A stretch of 64,000 bases of DNA, from positions 824 through 64,823 of the forward strand of contig JBBPZQ010000127.1 of assembly GCA_038198935.1 (NCBI GenBank), written 5' to 3'. Positions within the stretch are counted from its first letter, which is position 1; the number at the start of each line of letters is the position of its first letter. Source of the DNA: Anaerolineae bacterium (GTDB taxonomy: Bacteria; Chloroflexota; Anaerolineae; JACRMK01). This document shows, in pieces, positions 1-60,560 of the stretch. Made by a program: the position numbers and the translations under genes. The notes beneath the pieces were generated by a model. The model was not told where the DNA came from. It ran no database searches and saw nothing but the letters and a program-made list of their open reading frames with translations.

Positions 1-546
1 GCGATCAGCATCAGCGTCATCCCGCTGACACCGACTGCAACATTGCCAAGTAGTACGACGACTAATAATGTGAGCGCGAGCGCCACGCCGCGTCCGACGC
101 TTCAACCCACGAGTGCTGTGCCACCATCTGCAACGAGCGAGCCGACGCGCGACGTGACAACCACGCACACAGCCGATGCAACACGTACGCCAACTGCCAC
201 GCGCAGCGACGATAGCACGCGCGCACCCACTGCGACGCAAGCGCCACAATCCTCGCGCACGCCCGAGACAACACAAACGCCACAACCCTCACAAACGCCC
301 AAACCAACACAAGAACCATCGCAGTCACCGCAGCCAACACAGACGCCCAAACCGACACAAGAACCATCGCAGACGCCGCAGCCGACACAATCGCCCAAGC
401 CAACGCAGACGCAAGCGCCAACGCAAACACCACAAGCGACGCAAACCCAGAAGCCAACGCAGACACCCGAGCCAACGCGCACTTCGACCCCAGTCACACC
501 GACGCGCACGCCAGAGCCGACGCGCATACAAACGGCGACGCGGTAG
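1..546 (+). CDS. 3' end of a CDS entering the window; Pro/Thr/Gln-rich low-complexity C-terminal region built from about 48-nt tandem units (TPKPTQEPSQSPQPTQ)
   Basis: Reading frame open from nt 1 with no upstream stop; track ORF 43..546; repeated 16-aa units; stop TAG at 544-546. Confidence 0.5.
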   Translation, partial: AISISVIPLTPTATLPSSTTTNNVSASATPRPTLQPTSAVPPSATSEPTRDVTTTHTADATRTPTATRSDDSTRAPTATQAPQSSRTPETTQTPQPSQTPKPTQEPSQSPQPTQTPKPTQEPSQTPQPTQSPKPTQTQAPTQTPQATQTQKPTQTPEPTRTSTPVTPTRTPEPTRIQTATR

Positions 547-2573: not shown

Positions 2574-2733
2574 AGGAACTCCTCATCTCGTTGACTCGTT
2601 CTTATCTTACGTTAATCAGATGATGCAAAAATTATAGCATCCTTAAAATGCGCTAACAAACGGGCGAGTCAAAAATCCCTTGACACGCCTCTTTGATGTG
2701 TGCTATCGTTGGCGTGTTCGAGAGGATGTGCCT

Positions 2734-3714
2734 ATGAAACGAGAACGAGTTTCCGACGACATCGTGGTGTTCACCAGCACCTTGTACGCGCAGGTGAATG
2801 CCGGTGCGGTGCTCACGCCGGCTGGCGCGGTGCTGATTGACACGCTGCCCTTCCCCGAAGAGACGCGCGAGATCATTGATTACTTGAAAAGCGAGGGGGC
2901 GCAAGGCGTTGTGCGTTACGTCATCAACACGCATCGGCACGGCGACCACACGCACGGCAATTTTCTGTTCCCGCACGCCGAGGTCATTGGCCATCACCTC
3001 TGCCGCGAGACGCTGCTGCGGTGGGGCAACGACAGTTTGCAAGCCGCGAAGGAAGCGACGCCTGAACTCGACGAAGTGCAGATGCGAGTGCCGAGCATTA
3101 CGTTCGAGCGCGAGATGTCGCTATACATGGGCGGCATGACGCTGGAGTTGCTCTACTTGCCGGGCCATAGCATTGATGGCATCGGCGTGCACATCCGCAG
3201 CGAGCGCGTGCTGTTTTCGGGCGACGCGATCATGCCGCTGCCTTCGTTCGTGTGGGGCGATCGCGAACAGTTGATGGATTCGATGCAGCGCGTCAAGGCG
3301 ATGGACTTGGAGCATATTGTACAAGGCCACGGCGACGTGTTGCTGCGCGGCGAAATGGGCGAAGTGATTGATGGTAGTCTCGCGTACCTCGACAGCATCT
3401 ATCAGAAGGTGAAAAAGCGCGTCGCGATGGGCGCGAGCGAGCGCGACCTGGAAAAGATCACAGTCGAGAAGTCCGGCGGCTCGCCGATTGCGATGGACGG
3501 TATGGGCAAAAAACTGCATCAGGCGAACTTGCTCAAGCTGTATCGCACATTCAAAGAGGAGCAGCGCGAGCCGCTACCGCACGAGACTGCCGAGCCGAGT
3601 GTGAAGAAGCCGCGTGCGCGCCGCAAGGCATCACGGGCTGAGACACAACCGACCAACGGCACGACGCGCAAGCGCAACCCGCGCAAGCGCGAGACGACGA
3701 CCACGCGCTCGTGA
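2734..3714 (+). CDS. MBL-fold metallo-hydrolase with Lys/Arg-rich C-terminal tail
   Basis: HRHGDHTHGN (HxHxDH) motif; track ORF 2680..3714, start refined to ATG giving MKRERV; possible -35 TTGACA upstream at about 2676. Confidence 0.8.
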   Translation: MKRERVSDDIVVFTSTLYAQVNAGAVLTPAGAVLIDTLPFPEETREIIDYLKSEGAQGVVRYVINTHRHGDHTHGNFLFPHAEVIGHHLCRETLLRWGNDSLQAAKEATPELDEVQMRVPSITFEREMSLYMGGMTLELLYLPGHSIDGIGVHIRSERVLFSGDAIMPLPSFVWGDREQLMDSMQRVKAMDLEHIVQGHGDVLLRGEMGEVIDGSLAYLDSIYQKVKKRVAMGASERDLEKITVEKSGGSPIAMDGMGKKLHQANLLKLYRTFKEEQREPLPHETAEPSVKKPRARRKASRAETQPTNGTTRKRNPRKRETTTTRS

Positions 3715-3715
3715 T

Positions 3716-3744
3716 TTGACAGCACGGCAATCGGATTGCATAAT
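3716..3744 (+). promoter_or_regulatory. sigma70-type promoter (TTGACA - 17 nt - CATAAT) driving the T-box leader
   Basis: Consensus -35 hexamer, 17-nt spacer, near-consensus -10 immediately after the upstream stop. Confidence 0.55.
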
Positions 3745-3750
3745 CGAACA

Positions 3751-4066
3751 TAACGGCGATGATGGAAACGAGTAGCATCTGACGATCTGGCCAGCGAGTC
3801 TGGAATGGTGCAAGCCAGACACAGAGCGTGGACGCGAAAATCCTTCCGGAGCCACTGGGCGAAACAGTGCTGAGTGCTGAGTCCTGAGTATGAACTCCCG
3901 ACTCGGAACTCAGGACTTTAATAGTCCTCGTCGGGGTCGCTCCCGTTAGCAACGCGCGAGCATGATAGTGCTCGATAAAGTGGTGATGCGCTTGCGCGTC
4001 GTCAGCTGGGTGGTACCGCGGGAATCTTTTGACTCTCGTCCCTGTTTTGGGATGAGAGTTTTTTTG
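3751..4066 (+). promoter_or_regulatory. T-box riboswitch leader (tRNA-sensing antitermination) preceding the AlaX-like gene
   Basis: Conserved T-box sequence GGGTGGTACCGCGG at about 4007-4021 overlapping the 5' side of an intrinsic terminator (gactctcgtccc-tgttttg-ggatgagagt plus T7 at about 4030-4066); Stem-I-like distal element AGCGAGUCUGGAAUGGUGCAAG at about 3795-3820; leader of about 315 nt. Confidence 0.6.
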
Positions 4067-4123
4067 TATGCGACGGCAGACGGTGGACGGCTACGGTCTG
4101 CCCTCAGAATGCGAACAGAACAC

Positions 4124-4858
4124 ATGACAGAATTACTCTACCAACTTGACGCATACCTAAAAGACTTCGACGCAACCGTGACTGAGGTCAACGCCGACGT
4201 GGTTGCGCTCGACCGCACGGCGTTCTATCCGGGTGGCGGCGGCCAGCCCCATGATTTCGGCACGCTCGAAGTGGATGGCCAAACGTGGCAAGTCGTGAAG
4301 GTGAAGAAAGAGGGCGACAAGGTGTGGCATACGCTCTCCCTCACGCCTACCTCTCTCCCACAGGGCGACGGGACACCAGCCGTCGGCGCGCGCGTGCATG
4401 GCGCGCTCGACTGGGAGCGGCGCTATAAGTTGATGCGCACACACTCCGCGCTGCACGTGCTGTGCGGCGTGGTGTGGCGCGACTACGGCGCGCAGGTGAC
4501 AGGCGGCAACATGGAACCGCTCGACGCGCGCATGGATTTTGAGTTCGAGCGAATGCAGAAAGAGTTGGTCAGCGAGATCGAGCGGCACGTGAACGAGGGG
4601 ATTCAGAAGGGCTACAACGTCTCGGCCAAGATACTGCCGCGCGAGGAAGCGTTCAAGATTCCCGACCTGATTCGCACGAAGATTAACCTGCTGCCGCCGG
4701 GCATTGCGGAAGTTCGCACGGTCAACATCGAAGGACTCGACCTGCAAGCCGATGGCGGCACGCACGTCGCCAACACGCGCGAGATTGGGCGCGTGAAGGT
4801 GGTCGGCTACGAGAGCAAGGGGAAGATTAACAAGCGTATTCGGATTCAGGTGGAGTAG
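4124..4858 (+). CDS. alaX: AlaX-type trans-editing protein (alanyl-tRNA synthetase editing-domain homolog)
   Basis: HSALHVL and CGxxxxH zinc-binding motifs typical of AlaRS/ThrRS second additional domain; track ORF 3962..4858, start refined to ATG giving MTELLYQ. Confidence 0.7.
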   Translation: MTELLYQLDAYLKDFDATVTEVNADVVALDRTAFYPGGGGQPHDFGTLEVDGQTWQVVKVKKEGDKVWHTLSLTPTSLPQGDGTPAVGARVHGALDWERRYKLMRTHSALHVLCGVVWRDYGAQVTGGNMEPLDARMDFEFERMQKELVSEIERHVNEGIQKGYNVSAKILPREEAFKIPDLIRTKINLLPPGIAEVRTVNIEGLDLQADGGTHVANTREIGRVKVVGYESKGKINKRIRIQVE

Positions 4859-5123
4859 TCAGTAGCCAGTAGCCAGTAATCAGACTCCTCAATCTGGCTA
4901 CTGACATCTGATTACTGTATGACATTGGCAAGGCGCACGGCGAGTTCTTCGGCGAGATTCGTCCTGCCACCAGCATGGTCGAAGTCAAACGCTTGATTGA
5001 CCCCGCGATGCTGGTCGAGATTGAGGCGGAGGCGGTGGTTGGTGCAACGGAGTGATTCGGCGGCTGATATAGAACGGATAAGCGAACACATATGCTGCCA
5101 ACGGTTTATCCGTTTCACCTCGG

Positions 5124-5678
5124 TTGTCAAAGACATCCGCCACTAGACAGGAAAAGACAGTGATGACTCGCAGCTTGCTAATACTGGGCACGCGCACGAT
5201 GTTCGTTGCGAACATCGTACTCGCCACTGTCGCGTTCGTTGTCATTTTGAATTGGTACGATACCGGAACGTTCGACAACGGTGGATTGACTTCAATTGGT
5301 GGACTGACTTCGATTGCGATTAGCGGCGTTTTGATCGGCATGCTTGCACTGGCGTTTGAGGAATGGGTTTCCAAAGCTCTCAACTGCTGGACAGGGCGCA
5401 GTTTTCTCAATTTCATGAGAATCATTGTTCAGAGTGTTATTTACATGGCTCTGGTTCTTGCGGTTGCAGCTAGCGCCAGTGCTGCATTCTACGAATTTAC
5501 ATCGGGAAGAGGCTTACTCACCAGCATCCTAATGTTCGTGCATCTTCCAGTACTTGTACTGTTTTATGCAATTCTCCTGATTCCATTTGGAATCGGTGTT
5601 GGTATCCTCAACGGACTTTTACTCCGGTGGAACCATCTTTTGCAGTTGGAAAACGCACGAAGCCAGAATCATAGTTGA
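5124..5678 (+). CDS. hypothetical polytopic membrane protein (atypically low GC)
   Basis: Four to five hydrophobic helices; AT-rich codon usage unlike neighbours; internal 18-nt tandem duplication (GGLTSIGGLTSI). Confidence 0.55.
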   Translation: MSKTSATRQEKTVMTRSLLILGTRTMFVANIVLATVAFVVILNWYDTGTFDNGGLTSIGGLTSIAISGVLIGMLALAFEEWVSKALNCWTGRSFLNFMRIIVQSVIYMALVLAVAASASAAFYEFTSGRGLLTSILMFVHLPVLVLFYAILLIPFGIGVGILNGLLLRWNHLLQLENARSQNHS

Positions 5679-5685
5679 GGTACAA

Positions 5686-8600
5686 ATGTTCAAACCCGTT
5701 TCATCTCAAGTGAAGTATCCAGAACTGGAAGAGCGTGTGTTGCAGTTCTGGAAGCAGAACGACACGTTCAAGAAGTCCATGCAGTTGCGTGAGCAGAACG
5801 AGCACTACGTCTTCTTCGAGGGGCCACCGACGGCGAACGGTCGCCCTGGTCTGCATCACGTGCTCGCGCGCGTGTTCAAAGACTTGATGCCGCGCTATCA
5901 CACGATGAAAGGCAAATACGTCCTGCGCAAGGGCGGCTGGGATACGCACGGCTTGCCCGTCGAACTGGAAGTTGAGAAGAAGATTGGCTCGCGCGGCAAG
6001 CAGGACATCGAGAAGTTCGGTATCGCCGAGTTTAATCGCTTGTGTCGGCAGTCGGTGTGGGAGTATGTGCAAGAGTGGGAGCGCATGACCGACCGCATCG
6101 GCTTCTGGGTGGACACGGAGCACGCCTACATCACTTACGACAACTCGTATATCGAGTCGGGCTGGTGGATACTCAGGTCACTTTGGGATCGCGCGCTGCT
6201 GTTCAAGAATTACAAGGTGACGATGCACTGCCCACGCTGCTCGACCACACTCTCCGATGCAGAGGTCGCGCTCGGCTATAAAGACAACGTCGAAGACCCG
6301 TCGGTGTGGGTGAAGTTTAAAGTAACGGACGGTCCGTTCGCGGGCGCATATCTGCTCGCGTGGACGACGACGCCGTGGACTCTGCCCGCGAACGTCGCGC
6401 TCGCGCTCAAGGGCGACGCCGACTATGCGCTCGTTCGAGTCGGCGACGAAAAGTATTTGCTCGCGCAGGCGCGCGTGAACGACGTGTTCGATACAGATGT
6501 ACGCCTGCTGCAGACGATGCGCGGCGCAGACCTTGTGGGCACGCGCTACGAAAATCTGTATTCGGCTGTGCCCGCCAAAGGCGAGACGCCCAACATGACC
6601 AACGCGTACACGGTCATCAGTGACGAGACAGTCACGCTCGAAGACGGCACGGGCATCGTGCACATCGCGCCCGCGTACGGAGACTTGGAAGTAGGACGGC
6701 GTCACCACCTGCCGACGCTCTTCTCGGTTGACCTGAGTGGTCACCTGATGCCTGAGTTCGGCGAGGAACTGGGCGGCAATAAGTGGTTCAAGGAAGCCGA
6801 CAAAGACATCGCGCGCAACTTGCGCAAGCGCGGACTGCTGCTCAAAGAATCGCGCGTGCATCACTCGTACCCGTTCTGCTGGCGCTGCGATTCGCCACTG
6901 CTCTATTATGCCAAATCGTCGTGGTACATCCGCACGACAGCGGTGAAAGATCGCCTGCTGGCCGCGAACGACGAAATCAATTGGTATCCGCCGCACATCC
7001 AGCATGGGCGCTTCGGCAACTGGCTAGAGAACAACGTGGACTGGGCGCTCTCGCGCGAGCGCTATTGGGGCACGCCGCTGCCCATCTGGCAGTGCGAGCA
7101 GTGCGGCGCGTATGCGTGTGTCGGCTCGGTGAAGGAATTGCGCGAGCGTGCGCTTAACGCCACCGACGTGAATTGGGATGAGATGGACTTGCACCGTCCG
7201 TGGATTGATGCGGTCAAACTGAAATGCGACGAGTGCGGCAATGTGATGGATCGCATGCCCGACGTGCTCGACTGCTGGTTCGATTCGGGCGCGATGCCGT
7301 ACGCGCAGTGGCACTACCCGTTCGAGAATCAAGATATGTTCGAGGATCAGTTCCCCGCAAACTTCATCTGCGAGGCGATTGACCAGACGCGCGGCTGGTT
7401 CTACTCGCTGCACGCGCTGGGCGTGTTGATGAAGGACACACCTGTTTACAAAAACGTGATGGTGCTCGGCCACCTTCAGGATACATCGGGCAAGAAGATG
7501 TCGAAGTCGCTCGGCAACGTGATTGACCCGTGGCACATCCTGAACACCTACGGCGCCGACCCGCTGCGTTGGTATCTGTATCGCACGACAGCGCTCGGCA
7601 ACCCGTATCGCTTCAACGAGCACACGCTCGCGCGTGAGGTTGTGTCCGGCGTGTTCAATACGCTGTGGAACACGTACTCTTTCTTCGTGATGTATGCGAA
7701 TATTGACGGGTGGAGTCCGAGCCAACCCCCACCCCAGCCCTCCCCCGTTTCACAGGGGAGGGAGCAGACGCGCACGGAGGACTCCCTTCTCCTGCGCAGC
7801 GGGGGAAGGGTCGGGGATGGGGGTTCGTCCGCACTCGACCGCTGGATTCTCTCCGAACTGCACACCCTCATCGCGGACGTGGATGACGACCTCGCGCAGT
7901 ACGAAATCACCGATGCGGTGCGGCGCGTGGAAGCGTTTGTCGAGGTCTTGTCGAATTGGTATGTGCGCCGCTCGCGCCGCCGCTTCTGGAAGACAACGAC
8001 GGATGCGGATAAGCGTTCTGCCTACGCGACGCTATACGAGTGCTTGGTCACGCTCGCAAAATTGATGGCACCATTCACGCCATTTGTGGCGGAGGAGATT
8101 TATCAGAACCTCGTGCGGAGCGTGGATACGAGCGCGCCTGAGTCGGTGCATCACGCCGACTTCCCGCGCGCCGACACGAGCAAGCTGGACGAGCAGTTGA
8201 TGACCAACACGCGGTTGGTGATGCGCCTCGCTTCGCTCGGACTTGCCGCGCGCAAGCAGGCGAACCTAAAGGTACGTCAGCCGCTCGCTGAAGCGCTGGT
8301 GGTCGTGCCCAGCGCCGACGAGCGCGGCGCGCTGCAAGCGCTCAGCGACCAACTGGCGGAAGAGTGGAACGTCAAGGTGGTGCGCGTCGCGGAATCGTCG
8401 AGTGATGTCGCAGATTTGAAGTTGAATCCATTGCCCGCGAAACTGGGCCCGAAGTTCGGCGCAAAGTTCGGCGCAGTACGGCGGGCGCTGCTCGCGCACG
8501 AAGACGACCACGCACTGAAGTTGCAGCAAGGCGAGCGTGTGCACGTGCAGTTGAACGGCGAGACTCACGAGGTCTTGCCCGAAGAGGTCGAGGTCAAACT

Positions 8601-29581: not shown

Positions 29582-29666
29582 GGTTCAATAATTGACATTG
29601 AACGTTGGACGTTGGAGGCATTCCAATTCAACATCTAACGTCCAGCATCCAAATCAGGAGGATCGT

Positions 29667-37963: not shown

Positions 37964-38035
37964 ATGAGTAGCCAGTCGTCAGTCGCCAGTGGCCCGACGG
38001 TTCTCATCTGACGACTGACGCCTGAGTACTGTTCT

Positions 38036-40746: not shown

Positions 40747-43562
40747 TTCGCCTCGTCAGTTGGTTGAACTTGAATCCACTCGACCGCGCCCGCCACCGTC
40801 GGCGACGTGATGCGCTCGCCAATCGAGACGATGGCAGGACGGATGGGCGATGCATCTTCGCGGATGATGATGTTCTCGCCCGGCACCGTGATATAGCGAA
40901 CGAAGGCGTGGCTCGATCGCCAACCAACCGGTAGTTTGGAGCCTTCCGATTTCAATGCCATTGCCAATCTTAAGCTCGCACTCAGTGATGCCTCGTCGCG
41001 AACTGCCAACGCAACATTGTGGAACTTTTTATCGTGTTCCAGAAACTGCGCTAATCTGTCCGCTTCATTGGAAGACGCAAAGGTATCAAAATGATCTACA
41101 TAGTCCGCTGAGTTAATTCCTGTGATGAATGCGAGCAGATTGTATCCACGTTGATTCGGCGAGCGATCCTCTCCATCAATCCAGATATGAGCGAAATCGC
41201 CAACTTCTTCACCTGCACTTTTGACGACAACGAAACGATATGAATCAGGTTGACCGGTTTCACTTGGCAAATACCAAGTCGAGAACAGGGACGTCCATCG
41301 CAATGTCAACTCATTTAATCCCTCTGGCGTCCCTTGCATTTTAATCTGCACTCCATAATCCTTCGTGCCTTTCTGCAACGCAAACGAACCTGCCGGCCCA
41401 CCATTGACCAGTACGGTTAATTTCTGTCCTTCATCTGGCACGGTCACTCGCAGTGTGAGCACGACATCGGTATCCTGCTTCGGCATTAGCAGCCGCGTCT
41501 CATTGCGCTGCGCCCAAACGCGCTGCTCGCCCAACTCGCCCCAGCCGTCGGCGAAGTAAAGTCGCGCCATTGGCGACTTTGGATCAACCCCCACCCCTGC
41601 CCTTCCCCGCTGCGCAGGGGAGGGAGAGAGCCGATAGAGTCGCGTGCCGTCTGCATCGCGCCACAACTTGAGATCAGGCAGCACCGCTTCGAGCCACGGC
41701 TGCACTTTGCCACCGGCTTGCGCGCGCAGCACGATGTAGCGCACGTTGAAGAAGCGCATCACCTCGGGCGCGTACTGCTTGTCCTGCGCGAGCGTCGCCG
41801 CGTCGAGGTCGTGGCCCGTTTCGAGCGCGATGAGCGAATTGATGAGCGGCGCTTCGGTGAAGTATTGAAATTTCAATTCAGGGTTGCGGCTGGTGTTGCC
41901 GCTTAACATGCGCTTCTCGTGCACAGTCTGATAAAACTGGGACAGCATAAACACCTTGTCGAGCGTGCCCGTCACGCGGAAACTGTTGCGCCAGTCGAGC
42001 GGAATTTCGAGGACGGCGAAATCGCCGGGCTCATTGCGAATCTCGTCGTAGAACGACGGCGCGCGATAATCGGAGAGCGGCAAAACTGAAAAATGCTCAA
42101 CGAGTATTAGGAAGGAAATTAGGGAAGATAAAAGGAGATTAGGGGAAATCAATGCGTGCCCTTTATTTCTCTTATCTCCCCTAATCTCCCCTAATTTCCT
42201 CGCTTTCACGAGCAGATACTGAACACCGAACGCAACGAGCACCGCAACTCCGAGCGTGATCATCACCGAGTAGCGACTTGGATAGCGATTGCCTTTGAAA
42301 AATGGCAAGACTTGGAAGACGGCGAAGGGAAGCGGGATCGGAAACGCATTGCCATTCACTCGCAATTCGGGTCCGAGCGCGATGACGGCGAACGCGAGCG
42401 TCGTGACGCTCCAAAATTTCGCGAGCGTGTAGCGCCGATACACCCGCGCGCCGATGAGCGCAAGCGCCAGCGTCAGCCAGCCGACGAACACAAAGTTGAT
42501 GTAGGGAAACTCAAACCAAGTATCCAACCAGCCAACTATCGGATTCAACTTGCTCGGCACGAAGAAGCCAATCACGTCCGCTGAGAACGCATCTGCAAAG
42601 CCGGAGCCTTGCACGAGATAGTCGCCTTCGACGCGCAACTCTTGGATCATCGGCACGATGATCGGCGCGAAGCCGACGACGAATACGATGGCGACGAGCG
42701 CCAGCGCGAGCGTCATGCGCCAGAACGATTGCCGCGCACGCCAGTGCCACAGCCAGAAGAAAAATGTGAACACAATTAAAAACGAAGCGAAGGTGAATTC
42801 GGCATAGGCTTGCAGCAACAAGAACGTTGCGGCGAGGATGGCGTGACGAGCGGGGAGAAGCGAGTGGCGAGATGTCCTGTGCCGCAGGCATTCGCCTGCT
42901 TTGCGCGCAATTGCGCGCGGCACAGGATGCGCGAGTGGCGTGCGGTGAGTGGCGAACAAGTCAGAACGCAGCTTGAACAGGTACAGCACGTAGAATGGAA
43001 TCCACTGCGACGATGCTATGTTGAACTGGCCCAGCGAGGCATAGAGCATCTTGTTCGACGAGAAGGCAAACACAATGCCTGCGATAAACGCCGCCCAATC
43101 TCCAGTCTCCAGTCCCCAGTCCGCAATCCCTAACTCTTCAACCAACAGAAACATTCCATATCCGCACAACACAAACGACGACAACAACAGCATGTTCGCC
43201 GCAGGCACGAGCCCGAACACGGCTTGCAACGGGAGCGAGAGCGCGTCGTTCAGCAGCGTGAGCGTGTAGAAGACGAGGTTGATGCCAATCGGATAGAACA
43301 TGAAGTCGGTCGTGAGCGGCGAGGTGTGCAGATCGAGCAGCGCATGTTTGAACCACCACAAGTTCCATGTCAGCGCGGGGTCGTCGCTGCCATCGCCGAC
43401 GACGTGCGTCGTGAAATTCGCGGCGAGGGGCCAAGTCAGCACCAGTGCGAGCAGAGTATATGCGCCGAGCACGAGCAAATGTTTTCGCACGCAGCAGACT
43501 ATACCACAGAGACATATTTGGGCTAAACACTGTGCGCCAATTAGTGAACAAAGCACCGACAT
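40743..43562 (-). CDS. large polytopic membrane protein, probable glycosyltransferase/YfhO-like, carrying two in-frame palindromic insertions
   Basis: At least 12 TM N-terminal half, large C-terminal soluble domain; start overlaps downstream-gene stop. Confidence 0.55.
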   Translation of the reverse strand: MSVLCSLIGAQCLAQICLCGIVCCVRKHLLVLGAYTLLALVLTWPLAANFTTHVVGDGSDDPALTWNLWWFKHALLDLHTSPLTTDFMFYPIGINLVFYTLTLLNDALSLPLQAVFGLVPAANMLLLSSFVLCGYGMFLLVEELGIADWGLETGDWAAFIAGIVFAFSSNKMLYASLGQFNIASSQWIPFYVLYLFKLRSDLFATHRTPLAHPVPRAIARKAGECLRHRTSRHSLLPARHAILAATFLLLQAYAEFTFASFLIVFTFFFWLWHWRARQSFWRMTLALALVAIVFVVGFAPIIVPMIQELRVEGDYLVQGSGFADAFSADVIGFFVPSKLNPIVGWLDTWFEFPYINFVFVGWLTLALALIGARVYRRYTLAKFWSVTTLAFAVIALGPELRVNGNAFPIPLPFAVFQVLPFFKGNRYPSRYSVMITLGVAVLVAFGVQYLLVKARKLGEIRGDKRNKGHALISPNLLLSSLISFLILVEHFSVLPLSDYRAPSFYDEIRNEPGDFAVLEIPLDWRNSFRVTGTLDKVFMLSQFYQTVHEKRMLSGNTSRNPELKFQYFTEAPLINSLIALETGHDLDAATLAQDKQYAPEVMRFFNVRYIVLRAQAGGKVQPWLEAVLPDLKLWRDADGTRLYRLSPSPAQRGRAGVGVDPKSPMARLYFADGWGELGEQRVWAQRNETRLLMPKQDTDVVLTLRVTVPDEGQKLTVLVNGGPAGSFALQKGTKDYGVQIKMQGTPEGLNELTLRWTSLFSTWYLPSETGQPDSYRFVVVKSAGEEVGDFAHIWIDGEDRSPNQRGYNLLAFITGINSADYVDHFDTFASSNEADRLAQFLEHDKKFHNVALAVRDEASLSASLRLAMALKSEGSKLPVGWRSSHAFVRYITVPGENIIIREDASPIRPAIVSIGERITSPTVAGAVEWIQVQPTDEAK
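41587..41632. repeat. GC-rich palindromic element in frame (family copy C)
   Basis: cccccacccctgcccttccccgctgcgcaggggagggagagag; near-identical core to copy A; encodes SPSPAQRGRAGVGVDPKS on minus strand. Confidence 0.65.
42105..42207. repeat. second-type nested-palindrome element (cccctaatctcc / ggagattagggg units) in frame
   Basis: aggaaattaggg-aagataaaa-ggagattagggg ... cccctaatctcc-cccctaatttcct; AT-richer than host gene; encodes KARKLGEIRGDKRNKGHALISPNLLLSSLIS. Confidence 0.6.
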
Positions 43563-50197: not shown

Positions 50198-50261
50198 AGA
50201 CGGCGGACGGCAGACGACAGACCACCGTCAACCGTCCGCCGTCTCTCGTCCTCCATCAGCC

Positions 50262-52526: not shown

Positions 52527-52599
52527 CTTCGGCAGTGCTGGGCAAAAACGCTGAGTGCTGCGAATTGTTACTCAGCACTCAGCACTCAGCACTCGGCAC

Positions 52600-55049
<2,450 letters not shown>

Positions 55050-58859: not shown

Positions 58860-60491
58860 ATGCGCTTTCTGATTGACCCACGCACTTACAATGAACTGCG
58901 TACACGCACCCAACATCCGCCCGATTGCTGCGTGCGCGCAGGCGAGTATCCGCACCATGTTTATCGCGACGGCATTAAGTTCGACGTCGCCGTTGCAATT
59001 GTGGACGGCATGCGCGAGGCGGAGGCGCGCAACGACAAGGAAGCCTTGCATCACTTAATGCTGCACAAAGTGCAATTGGATCGCGCGCTGCTCGACGCCA
59101 AGCAGAATGGAACGCTGAACGGCTCGCTGCTCGGCGATGCGCTGCCGACCGACGAGCCTCATCCAACATTGAGCAACTCATTTGTGCCGTCGCCGCCCGC
59201 CACTCTCGACGACACGGGGCTCAATCGCTCCTTCGCGTTCGAGATGATCCTGCGCACGATTTACTTTCGCGGCCGCCCGACGGGCGGCGACATCGCGCGT
59301 GCGCTCGGCTTGTCATATCGCGCGATCGGGCCACTGTTGCAGGAGATGCGGCAGAAAGAATTGGTGGACATCACGGGTCAAAAGGGGATGGGCGATATCG
59401 GCTACGAGTACATTCTCACGCCGCAGTTCGGAGTGCGTGCGGTGCAAGATGCACTGAAGAAAACCGAGTACGCGGGAGCCGCGCCCGTGCCGTTCAAGAC
59501 GTATGTCGAATCCATTACGGCACAGACGATCAAGAACGTCGTCGTCACGCGCCGCAATATCCGCGAGGCGTTCAGCGATTTGATCATCACCGATGCGGTG
59601 CTGAACGAGATTGGGCCCGCGATCAATTCTGCCTCATCCATTTTTCTATTCGGCTTTCCGGGCAATGGCAAGACGAGCATCGCGGAGCGCATCACGCGCC
59701 TGCTCGGCGATGATATTTACATTCCATACGCAGTCGAGGTTGAGGGCCAAATCATTAAGGTGTTCGACGGTGGCGTGCACGAACTCGCCGACGAATCATC
59801 GCTCAACCTGAAAGGCAACGGCTACCACACCGAGCTGCTGTACGATATGCGCTGGGTGCGCGTCAAGCGGCCCGTCGTCATCACGGGCGGCGAACTGACG
59901 CTGCCCAGCCTCGATCTGATTTACAACGAGCACGGACGCTTCTACGAAGCGCCGTTCCAGATGAAAGCGAACAGCGGCATTTTTATGATTGACGACTTCG
60001 GGCGGCAGCAGGTACGCCCAATGGATTTGCTCAATCGCTGGATCGTGCCACTCGAAAAACGCTACGACTACCTGACGACCGTGAGCGGCAAGAAACTCGA
60101 AGTGCCGTTCGATCAACTGCTCATCTTTTCGACCAATCTCGATCCGAATCAACTCGCGGACGAAGCGTTCCTGCGGCGCATCAAATACAAGATCGAGATT
60201 CGCGATCCTGATGAGGCACAGTGGCGCGAAATTTGGAAGCTGGTGTGCAAGGGACGCAAAGTCGAGTACGACGCGCGTGGCGTGGACTACATGATTGAGA
60301 AGTGGATGAAATCAGAGGGACGGCCATTCCGTATGTGTCAGCCGCGCGACATTCTCGACCAGATGATCAGCCTGGCCAGGTACAATATGGAACAGCCGAC
60401 GTTCTCACCGGATTTGATTGACGCAGCGTGTATGACCTACTTTGTGAGACGCGAGGCGAAGAACTTTGGGGCAAAAGTACGATTGGAGTAA
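58860..60491 (+). CDS. AAA+ ATPase with N-terminal winged-HTH-like segment, function unknown
   Basis: Walker A GFPGNGKTS, Walker B MIDDFG, sensor-1 STN; AGGAG-like RBS; ATG at 58860. Confidence 0.65.
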   Translation: MRFLIDPRTYNELRTRTQHPPDCCVRAGEYPHHVYRDGIKFDVAVAIVDGMREAEARNDKEALHHLMLHKVQLDRALLDAKQNGTLNGSLLGDALPTDEPHPTLSNSFVPSPPATLDDTGLNRSFAFEMILRTIYFRGRPTGGDIARALGLSYRAIGPLLQEMRQKELVDITGQKGMGDIGYEYILTPQFGVRAVQDALKKTEYAGAAPVPFKTYVESITAQTIKNVVVTRRNIREAFSDLIITDAVLNEIGPAINSASSIFLFGFPGNGKTSIAERITRLLGDDIYIPYAVEVEGQIIKVFDGGVHELADESSLNLKGNGYHTELLYDMRWVRVKRPVVITGGELTLPSLDLIYNEHGRFYEAPFQMKANSGIFMIDDFGRQQVRPMDLLNRWIVPLEKRYDYLTTVSGKKLEVPFDQLLIFSTNLDPNQLADEAFLRRIKYKIEIRDPDEAQWREIWKLVCKGRKVEYDARGVDYMIEKWMKSEGRPFRMCQPRDILDQMISLARYNMEQPTFSPDLIDAACMTYFVRREAKNFGAKVRLE

Positions 60492-60560
60492 TGCGTGATC
60501 CGTAATTGGTGCGCGATGGTTACGGATTACGGATCACGCATCCCGCATTACGAATCACGT
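60488..60560. repeat. REP-like intergenic palindromic repeat (copy 2)
   Basis: gtaatgcgtgatccgtaat ... ttacggatcacgcat ... cgcattacgaatcacg between convergent genes. Confidence 0.6.

Follow-up and report, generated by a model that had tools for sequence, protein, structure and literature searches.

Which tRNA does a T-box riboswitch sense when the first gene behind it encodes a free-standing alanyl-tRNA editing protein? The question is raised by a locus in a 64,000-nucleotide (nt) stretch of DNA from an Anaerolineae bacterium (contig JBBPZQ010000127.1 of assembly GCA_038198935.1; the whole stretch is called the window below), where a T-box leader precedes the editing gene alaXM. An original prediction, made without database searches, had proposed tRNA-Ala. 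We find RNA family resemblance, conserved alternative structures, an invariant AUC codon and a tight association with ileS or ilvB, and conclude that the element is very probably a canonical transcription-attenuation T-box specific for tRNA-Ile, heading an alaXM–ileS operon in which ileS, encoding isoleucyl-tRNA synthetase (IleRS), is the cognate gene.

The leader and its specifier codon

The T-box element, of the transcription-attenuation type, occupies 3750-4065, 3' of a conserved promoter (Table 1). The RF00230 covariance search that the original prediction had proposed as a check gave, in a local run with permissive filters, a match at 3750-4046 covering all 219 model positions (E = 2.8e-18; E = 3.3e-16 in a search of the whole window), with a score of 82 bits that is significant but under the gathering score of 93. 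Permissive filters were required for this detection; a default Rfam scan of the window reported no T-box, with a tRNA-Glu as its sole match. The leader belongs to a GC-rich subfamily that scores around or under the Rfam cut-off (53-94 bits), the two relatives scored reaching 93.8 bits (L056) and 53.4 bits (L043). The promoter-like site matches the consensus at 11 of 12 positions in a pattern scan, and a TTGACA/TATAAT-like pair is aligned at the equivalent position in many relatives' leaders.

All of the K-turn (GAUGA, 3758-3762), the S-turn specifier loop (AGUA...GAA), the AG bulge (AGCGA) and the distal loop are present in Stem I, the last holding GGUGCAA (3807-3813). Compensatory changes on both sides were seen for 15 of the 18 pairs that RNAalifold predicted from 33 leaders; two pairs predicted inside the specifier loop are invariant and carry no evidential weight. 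The Stem II region that follows has acquired a hairpin insertion of about 65 nt made of tandem heptamers (at about 3862-3931 in the Rfam alignment and the fold, with a period-7 array at 3866-3889), and the AAGUG before Stem III is a flank of the RRRxG type, a motif described in PMC7583486.

The 3' domain can adopt either of two structures. The T-box sequence GGGTGGTACCGCGG (GGGUGGUACCGCGG), at 4008-4021, lies within the antiterminator, whose bulge UGGUACC includes UGGU at 4011-4014. The terminator was found by both pattern scan and folding, as a stem at 4031-4060 with seven consecutive T behind it, and the 76-nt stretch that holds it (3995-4070) folds at -27.1 kcal/mol. Its 5' arm overlaps the antiterminator 3' arm, 4031-4042 being common to both, so the two structures are mutually exclusive. 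Across 30 leaders aligned over the 3' domain (alignment A2), 98.9% of antiterminator cells were paired, as against 52-66% when the partner was slid, and the terminator was 94.7% paired, as against 42-55%; six of its 12 pairs had changed on both sides. A T-rich tract follows the terminator in all 30 of these leaders, which places the element in the transcriptional class of T-box. Motif, scans and folding therefore bear out much of what the original prediction had described: the sigma-70 promoter, the leader of about 315 nt with its T-box sequence set in an antiterminator and terminator, and the distal GGUGCAA. The first downstream gene is likewise of the AlaX type that it had named (NCBIfam NF040865, 300.9 bits against an equivalog cut-off of 300).

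It is to the specifier loop that one must look for the identity of the tRNA. In the covariance-model alignment this loop has ACGAGUA (3768-3774) as its 5' side and GAAAAUCC as its 3' side; it reads GAA-A-AUC-C, and no alanine codon (no GCN) lies within it. The positional rule of TBDB, which starts at the end of the specifier bulge, counts 5'-ward and takes bases 2-4 as the codon, yields AUC at 3840-3842, and the covariance model sets the equivalent specifier bases of two relatives in identical columns. The pattern GAA-N-AUC-[C/A] occurs in 36 of the 36 leaders with Stem I on the contig, the window's own included; in this alignment (A1) GAA and AUC are invariant, whereas the spacer base varies among A, U and G and the trailing base between C and A. 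The helix below the loop (GGAA 3764-3767 with UUCC 3844-3847 in the window) covaries among leaders (GGAA/UUCC, GGAG/CUCC, AGAG/CUCU, GAAA/UUUC), which fixes the codon register. Judged by position and conservation, the specifier codon is AUC, for isoleucine, with no codon for alanine.

The specifier that the original prediction had placed near 3858, GCC-A, corresponds to the GCCA of 3851-3854. Its first two bases, G3851 and C3852, are paired in the covariance-model alignment with C3757 and G3756, in the lowest part of Stem I; held in this way at the foot of the stem, GCC is unavailable as a specifier. The tRNA-Ala reading falls on the prediction's own terms: it had named a loop matching an unrelated amino acid as grounds for refutation, and the loop at the canonical position matches isoleucine. 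UGGU predicts discriminator A and is compatible with tRNA-Ala, as the prediction had argued, but A73 suits tRNA-Ile equally well.

We infer tRNA-Ile binding and an attenuation response of the following kind. Transcription would start just 3' of the promoter, and tRNA-Ile(GAU) would dock on Stem I, its anticodon pairing with AUC and its elbow stacking on the distal platform. If the tRNA were uncharged, its 3' ACCA would pair with UGGU and stabilise the antiterminator, letting RNA polymerase into alaXM and, absent any terminator, onward to ileS; if it were charged, the terminator would form and transcription would halt before alaXM.

Genes that accompany the T-box

We obtained 80 Anaerolineae/Chloroflexota loci via AlaXM (59-68% identity), 81 with the window, and located T-boxes in the relatives by regular expression and profile search (nhmmer). 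A T-box stood 5' of alaXM in 38 of the 80 relatives, and nowhere else in those loci. Among the 39 loci with a T-box, window included, ileS followed downstream within 3 kb on the same strand in 36, was absent from that distance in one, and two had too little sequence to tell; for the 42 loci without a T-box the corresponding numbers were 0, 34 and 8. Interpretable loci accordingly divided as 36 of 37 with a T-box vs. 0 of 34 without (Fisher P = 1.7e-19, uncorrected for relatedness). In the T-box loci the ileS start was often only 11-17 nt past the alaXM stop; in the 34 loci without a T-box, ileS was 3.3-4.6 kb away in eight and not visible in 26. The downstream genes tested, those of L021, L043, L006 and L015, all passed the ileS equivalog cut-off (660-963 bits), among them ones only about 34% identical to the window IleRS. 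Where ileS lay 3-4.6 kb from alaXM, nhmmer found no separate T-box at it, and in five loci with a distant ileS and none at alaXM Rfam gave no T-box anywhere at E ≤ 0.001.

A second set of loci was chosen without reference to alaXM, by scanning metagenome contigs for the Stem I/AUC signature ACGAGTA-N55-85-GAAAATCCYTCCNGAGC. In the 120 loci recovered, the first gene after the T-box was ileS in 52 and alaXM in 35, the remaining 33 being mostly contig ends; alaXM leads about 40% of the isoleucine T-box units with an identifiable first gene. In 21 of the 35 loci with alaXM first, ileS was seen after it; of the other 14, only three extended beyond alaXM by more than 1 kb. The gene ilvB came first in two loci, and both copies scored as biosynthetic acetolactate synthase (TIGR00118, 705 and 665 bits vs. 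538). The element thus serves this lineage as its isoleucine T-box, constantly partnered by ileS or by genes of branched-chain amino-acid biosynthesis, with alaXM as an optional leading cistron. The original prediction had taken the leader to control a stand-alone editing gene, a picture that the T-box, tracking ileS rather than alaXM, does not support.

In several loci GNAT acetyltransferase genes stand directly after the isoleucine T-box and precede alaXM and/or ileS, singly in L113, L114, L083 and L137 and doubly in L088, L180 and L194. A broader GNAT-IleRS association is hinted at by the NCBIfam family NF040702 (IleRS fused to a GNAT domain), which appeared as a weak match in the protein scan of the window.

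The alaXM–ileS junction tolerates insertions. The gap between the two genes in relatives ranges from 11 nt to 2.7 kb, with unrelated open reading frames (ORFs) inside it that encode Fic, MazG, a TPR/nuclease protein and others without a family match. A conserved ORF of about 228 aa that matches nothing in Pfam occupies the gap in each of five relatives (L003 6714-7400, L008 6702-7388, L027 6090-6776, L040 7123-7809 and L080 6723-7421).

Read-through into ileS and competing readings

The ileS gene of the window lies on the same strand as alaXM, 828 nt 3' of it, and its product scores 925 bits with TIGR00392, against an equivalog cut-off of 621. Within the spacer, a strong hairpin overlaps the alaXM stop codon; it has no U-tract and is not called by terminator scans. 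Next come the remnant of a RidA/L-PSP gene and ORF184, which has no homolog in the 80 related loci, lies in DNA of 43-51% GC between flanks of about 60% and probably represents an insertion within the operon; its stop codon falls 8 nt before the ileS ATG. Pattern scans of the plus strand between alaXM and ileS (4800-5800 covered) found no terminator-like or promoter-like site, and no second T-box or other regulatory RNA was found between the two genes in the window. With a hairpin, a gene remnant and a lower-GC ORF in the spacer, we infer rather than observe read-through into ileS in this genome, and consider it reasonably likely. RidA is linked to isoleucine biosynthesis, and we considered it as a conserved isoleucine-related operon member; this was rejected, as relatives have a mixed set of ORFs between the two genes, none of them an intact ridA.

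Table 1. Coordinates of the leader, its operon and the repeat hairpins in the window
Feature	Position	Strand	Details
Promoter-like site, sigma-70-type	3716-3744	+	-35 TTGACA 3716-3721, 17-nt spacer, -10 CATAAT 3739-3744
Stem I	3756-3852	+	Rfam alignment, nhmmer, covariation
Specifier-loop 3' side GAAAAUCC	3836-3843	+	codon AUC (Ile) 3840-3842, then C3843; covariance-model specifier columns
Stem II / IIA-B region and linker	3853-3982	+	Rfam alignment
Stem III	3983-4002	+	preceded by AAGUG; Rfam alignment, alignment A2
Antiterminator	4008-4042	+	GGG 4008-4010 / CCC 4040-4042; helix 4018-4023 / 4034-4039
Intrinsic terminator	4031-4065	+	12-bp stem 4031-4042 / 4049-4060, T-run to 4065
alaXM, alanyl-tRNA editing protein, 244 aa, first cistron	4124-4858	+	NCBIfam NF040865
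Hairpin of heptamer repeats at alaXM stop	4853-4920	+	-31.4 kcal/mol, z -3.6
RidA/L-PSP remnant, C-terminal 47 codons only	4912-5055	+	PF01042 28.9 bits, profile 82-121 of 121
ORF184, hydrophobic, TTG start	5124-5678	+	no Pfam/NCBIfam match; GC 0.43-0.51
ileS, isoleucyl-tRNA synthetase, 1094 aa	5686-8970	+	TIGR00392, synteny
Heptamer hairpins	3866-3931, 4853-4920, 29594-29650, 37967-38030, 50198-50245, 52550-52600, 53564-53650, 60490-60545		
Heptamer array without inverted partner	43094-43130		

Several observations weigh against a tRNA-Ile-specific T-box that heads an alaXM–ileS operon. The covariance score is sub-threshold, and the hairpin insertion, which we had considered as its cause, explains it only in part: L043, with no such insertion, scores lower still, at only 53 bits. 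The codon is followed by C in 35 of 36 leaders (C3843 here) and by A only in L056; T-boxes normally have a conserved purine at this place (PMC7583486). Neither the window nor 106 loci contained a tRNA-Ile gene of this lineage that would confirm the GAU anticodon and A73. Shared ancestry links the compared loci, so that the counts behind the ileS association are non-independent events. One relative, L004, has T-box and alaXM with no ileS within 4.1 kb, and three metagenome loci run 1-2 kb past alaXM without reaching ileS. In the window itself there is the spacer with its strong hairpin, gene remnant and lower-GC ORF.

The spacer in particular bears on the best-surviving alternative, namely, that the isoleucine T-box now controls alaXM only in this genome, the 828-nt insertion having uncoupled ileS, which would then be served by its own, unrecognised promoter. 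The hairpin at the alaXM stop would suit such an uncoupling, as would the lower GC of a spacer whose content is unrelated to that of relatives' spacers, and L004 and a few metagenome loci provide precedents for T-box and alaXM without a nearby ileS. Against this, the hairpin has no U-tract, the plus strand over 4800-5800 offers neither a terminator-like nor a promoter-like site, ORF184 ends almost at the ileS start, and the T-box persists in many relatives in which 0.5-2.7 kb has been inserted between the two genes. We regard sole control of alaXM as unlikely.

A misread codon register is far less probable. The loop could be read as AAU (Asn) or UCC (Ser), possibly besides AUC; TBDB notes that -1/+1 frames are occasionally correct, and serine, the known mischarged substrate of AlaX, makes a tempting link. 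Neither overlapping triplet is conserved, however: three leaders have UAU or GAU in place of AAU and one has UCA in place of UCC, whereas AUC has never changed, and no asnS or serS is associated with the T-box loci. The tRNAs for serine and asparagine, moreover, typically have G73, so a wobble with the U of UGGU would be needed.

We give equally little weight to a decayed, non-functional T-box relic, which the sub-threshold Rfam score and the 65-nt insertion in the Stem II region might suggest. The core motifs and the promoter are intact, the terminator and antiterminator are also intact and covary across relatives, and comparable insertions are found in variable loops of other leaders.

An alanine-specific T-box that senses uncharged tRNA-Ala and regulates the free-standing editing factor earns almost no credence, given that AlaXM as the first gene and a UGGU compatible with A73 of tRNA-Ala are set against a specifier loop without GCN, a base-paired GCC and an invariant AUC, against 42 of 80 relatives whose alaXM has no T-box (0 of 34 interpretable with ileS within 3 kb), and against the same T-box type standing directly on ileS or ilvB elsewhere.

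AlaXM, related systems and repeat hairpins

The AlaXM protein has the Pfam domains tRNA-synt_2c and tRNA_SAD and retains the HxxxH motif (as HSALH). In this it is like the AlaX-M trans-editing proteins (PDB 2E1B, 9IUW) and the editing domain of alanyl-tRNA synthetase (AlaRS), which share the C-terminal piece of tRNA-synt_2c, tRNA_SAD and HxxxH. Unlike them, the Anaerolineae copies have Asp for Cys in the zinc-binding motif CxxxH: DGGTH occurs in 80 of 81 copies, T-box-linked or not (the window residues ADGGTH are encoded near 4745-4762), at the place where archaeal AlaRS and AlaX have CGGTH. The Asp might still ligate zinc. We asked whether the T-box-linked proteins form a distinct paralog and rejected the idea, as copies with and without a T-box are intermingled on the tree and DGGTH is common to both groups; the neighbour-joining tree needed 10 changes of T-box state, vs. 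about 27 for shuffled labels.

Might the tie between AlaXM and ileS go beyond co-transcription, to a functional coupling of AlaXM with isoleucine or tRNA-Ile homeostasis? The gene stays near ileS in eight further genomes that have no T-box, an observation that bears on such coupling, but we think the idea quite doubtful. A coupled AlaXM might clear misacylated tRNAs that accumulate under isoleucine scarcity, and its substrate range might be altered, as the clade-wide replacement of Cys by Asp in its zinc motif could hint. If the coupling were true, uncharged tRNA-Ile would be a physiologically meaningful inducer of AlaXM.

An isoleucine T-box 5' of ileS has already been documented in Chloroflexi, in Dehalococcoides (PMC2494555). 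The window leader shares much with the transcriptional ileS T-boxes of Bacillus, Staphylococcus and Dehalococcoides: a long Stem I with K-turn, S-turn specifier loop, AG bulge and distal loop; Stems II, IIA/B and III; a UGGN antiterminator that competes with an intrinsic terminator; an AUC specifier; and ileS in the controlled operon. It differs from them in having alaXM interposed as first cistron, C in place of a purine directly 3' of the specifier, a Stem II region enlarged by a heptamer-repeat hairpin, and membership of a GC-rich subfamily around or under the Rfam cut-off. The translational ileS T-boxes of actinobacteria (Mycobacterium, Nocardia) are likewise isoleucine-specific, outside Firmicutes and in control of ileS, but their Stem I is short and they act by sequestering the ribosome-binding site, whereas the window leader has a full-length Stem I and a canonical terminator whose U-tract is conserved across relatives.

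In an incomplete literature search we found no description of T-box control of AlaX, YbaK or another trans-editing factor. Many Anaerolineae have placed a trans-editing factor gene under tRNA-Ile-dependent control, which is only a modestly new point. The placement of alaXM may be neutral hitch-hiking in an insertion-tolerant operon; if it is not neutral, isoleucine starvation and proofreading capacity would be linked through it. More generally, assigning a specificity to a T-box calls for a reading of the specifier loop and the complete operon in place of the first downstream gene: pipelines that label by nearest gene would mislabel the alaXM–ileS T-box, and default scans miss GC-rich Chloroflexota T-boxes at or under the Rfam cut-off.

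Upstream of the promoter, a gene for a metallo-beta-lactamase-fold protein (2680-3714) ends 2 nt 5' of the -35 hexamer, so that its transcripts may run on into the leader. Such a gene (42-55% identity) is found on the same strand 5' of the T-box in about 24 related loci.

In many intergenic hairpins of the window, a heptamer is repeated three to five times in tandem and then recurs as an inverted array, and the sequence of the unit differs from site to site; one such hairpin lies inside the T-box leader and another at the alaXM stop codon. They resemble the STRR heptamer repeats of cyanobacteria. Leaders of relatives have heptamer- or hexamer-repeat hairpins of their own, about 100-300 nt 5' of alaXM, in Stem III (L004, L005, L020 and L024) or in the Stem II region (L017 and L021). 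Their occurrence in the variable stems of several leaders points to repeated colonisation of the tolerant loops of the riboswitch. At the start of the window (43-546) there is also a low-complexity ORF, rich in Thr, Pro and Gln, with tandem DNA repeats of 18-48 nt.

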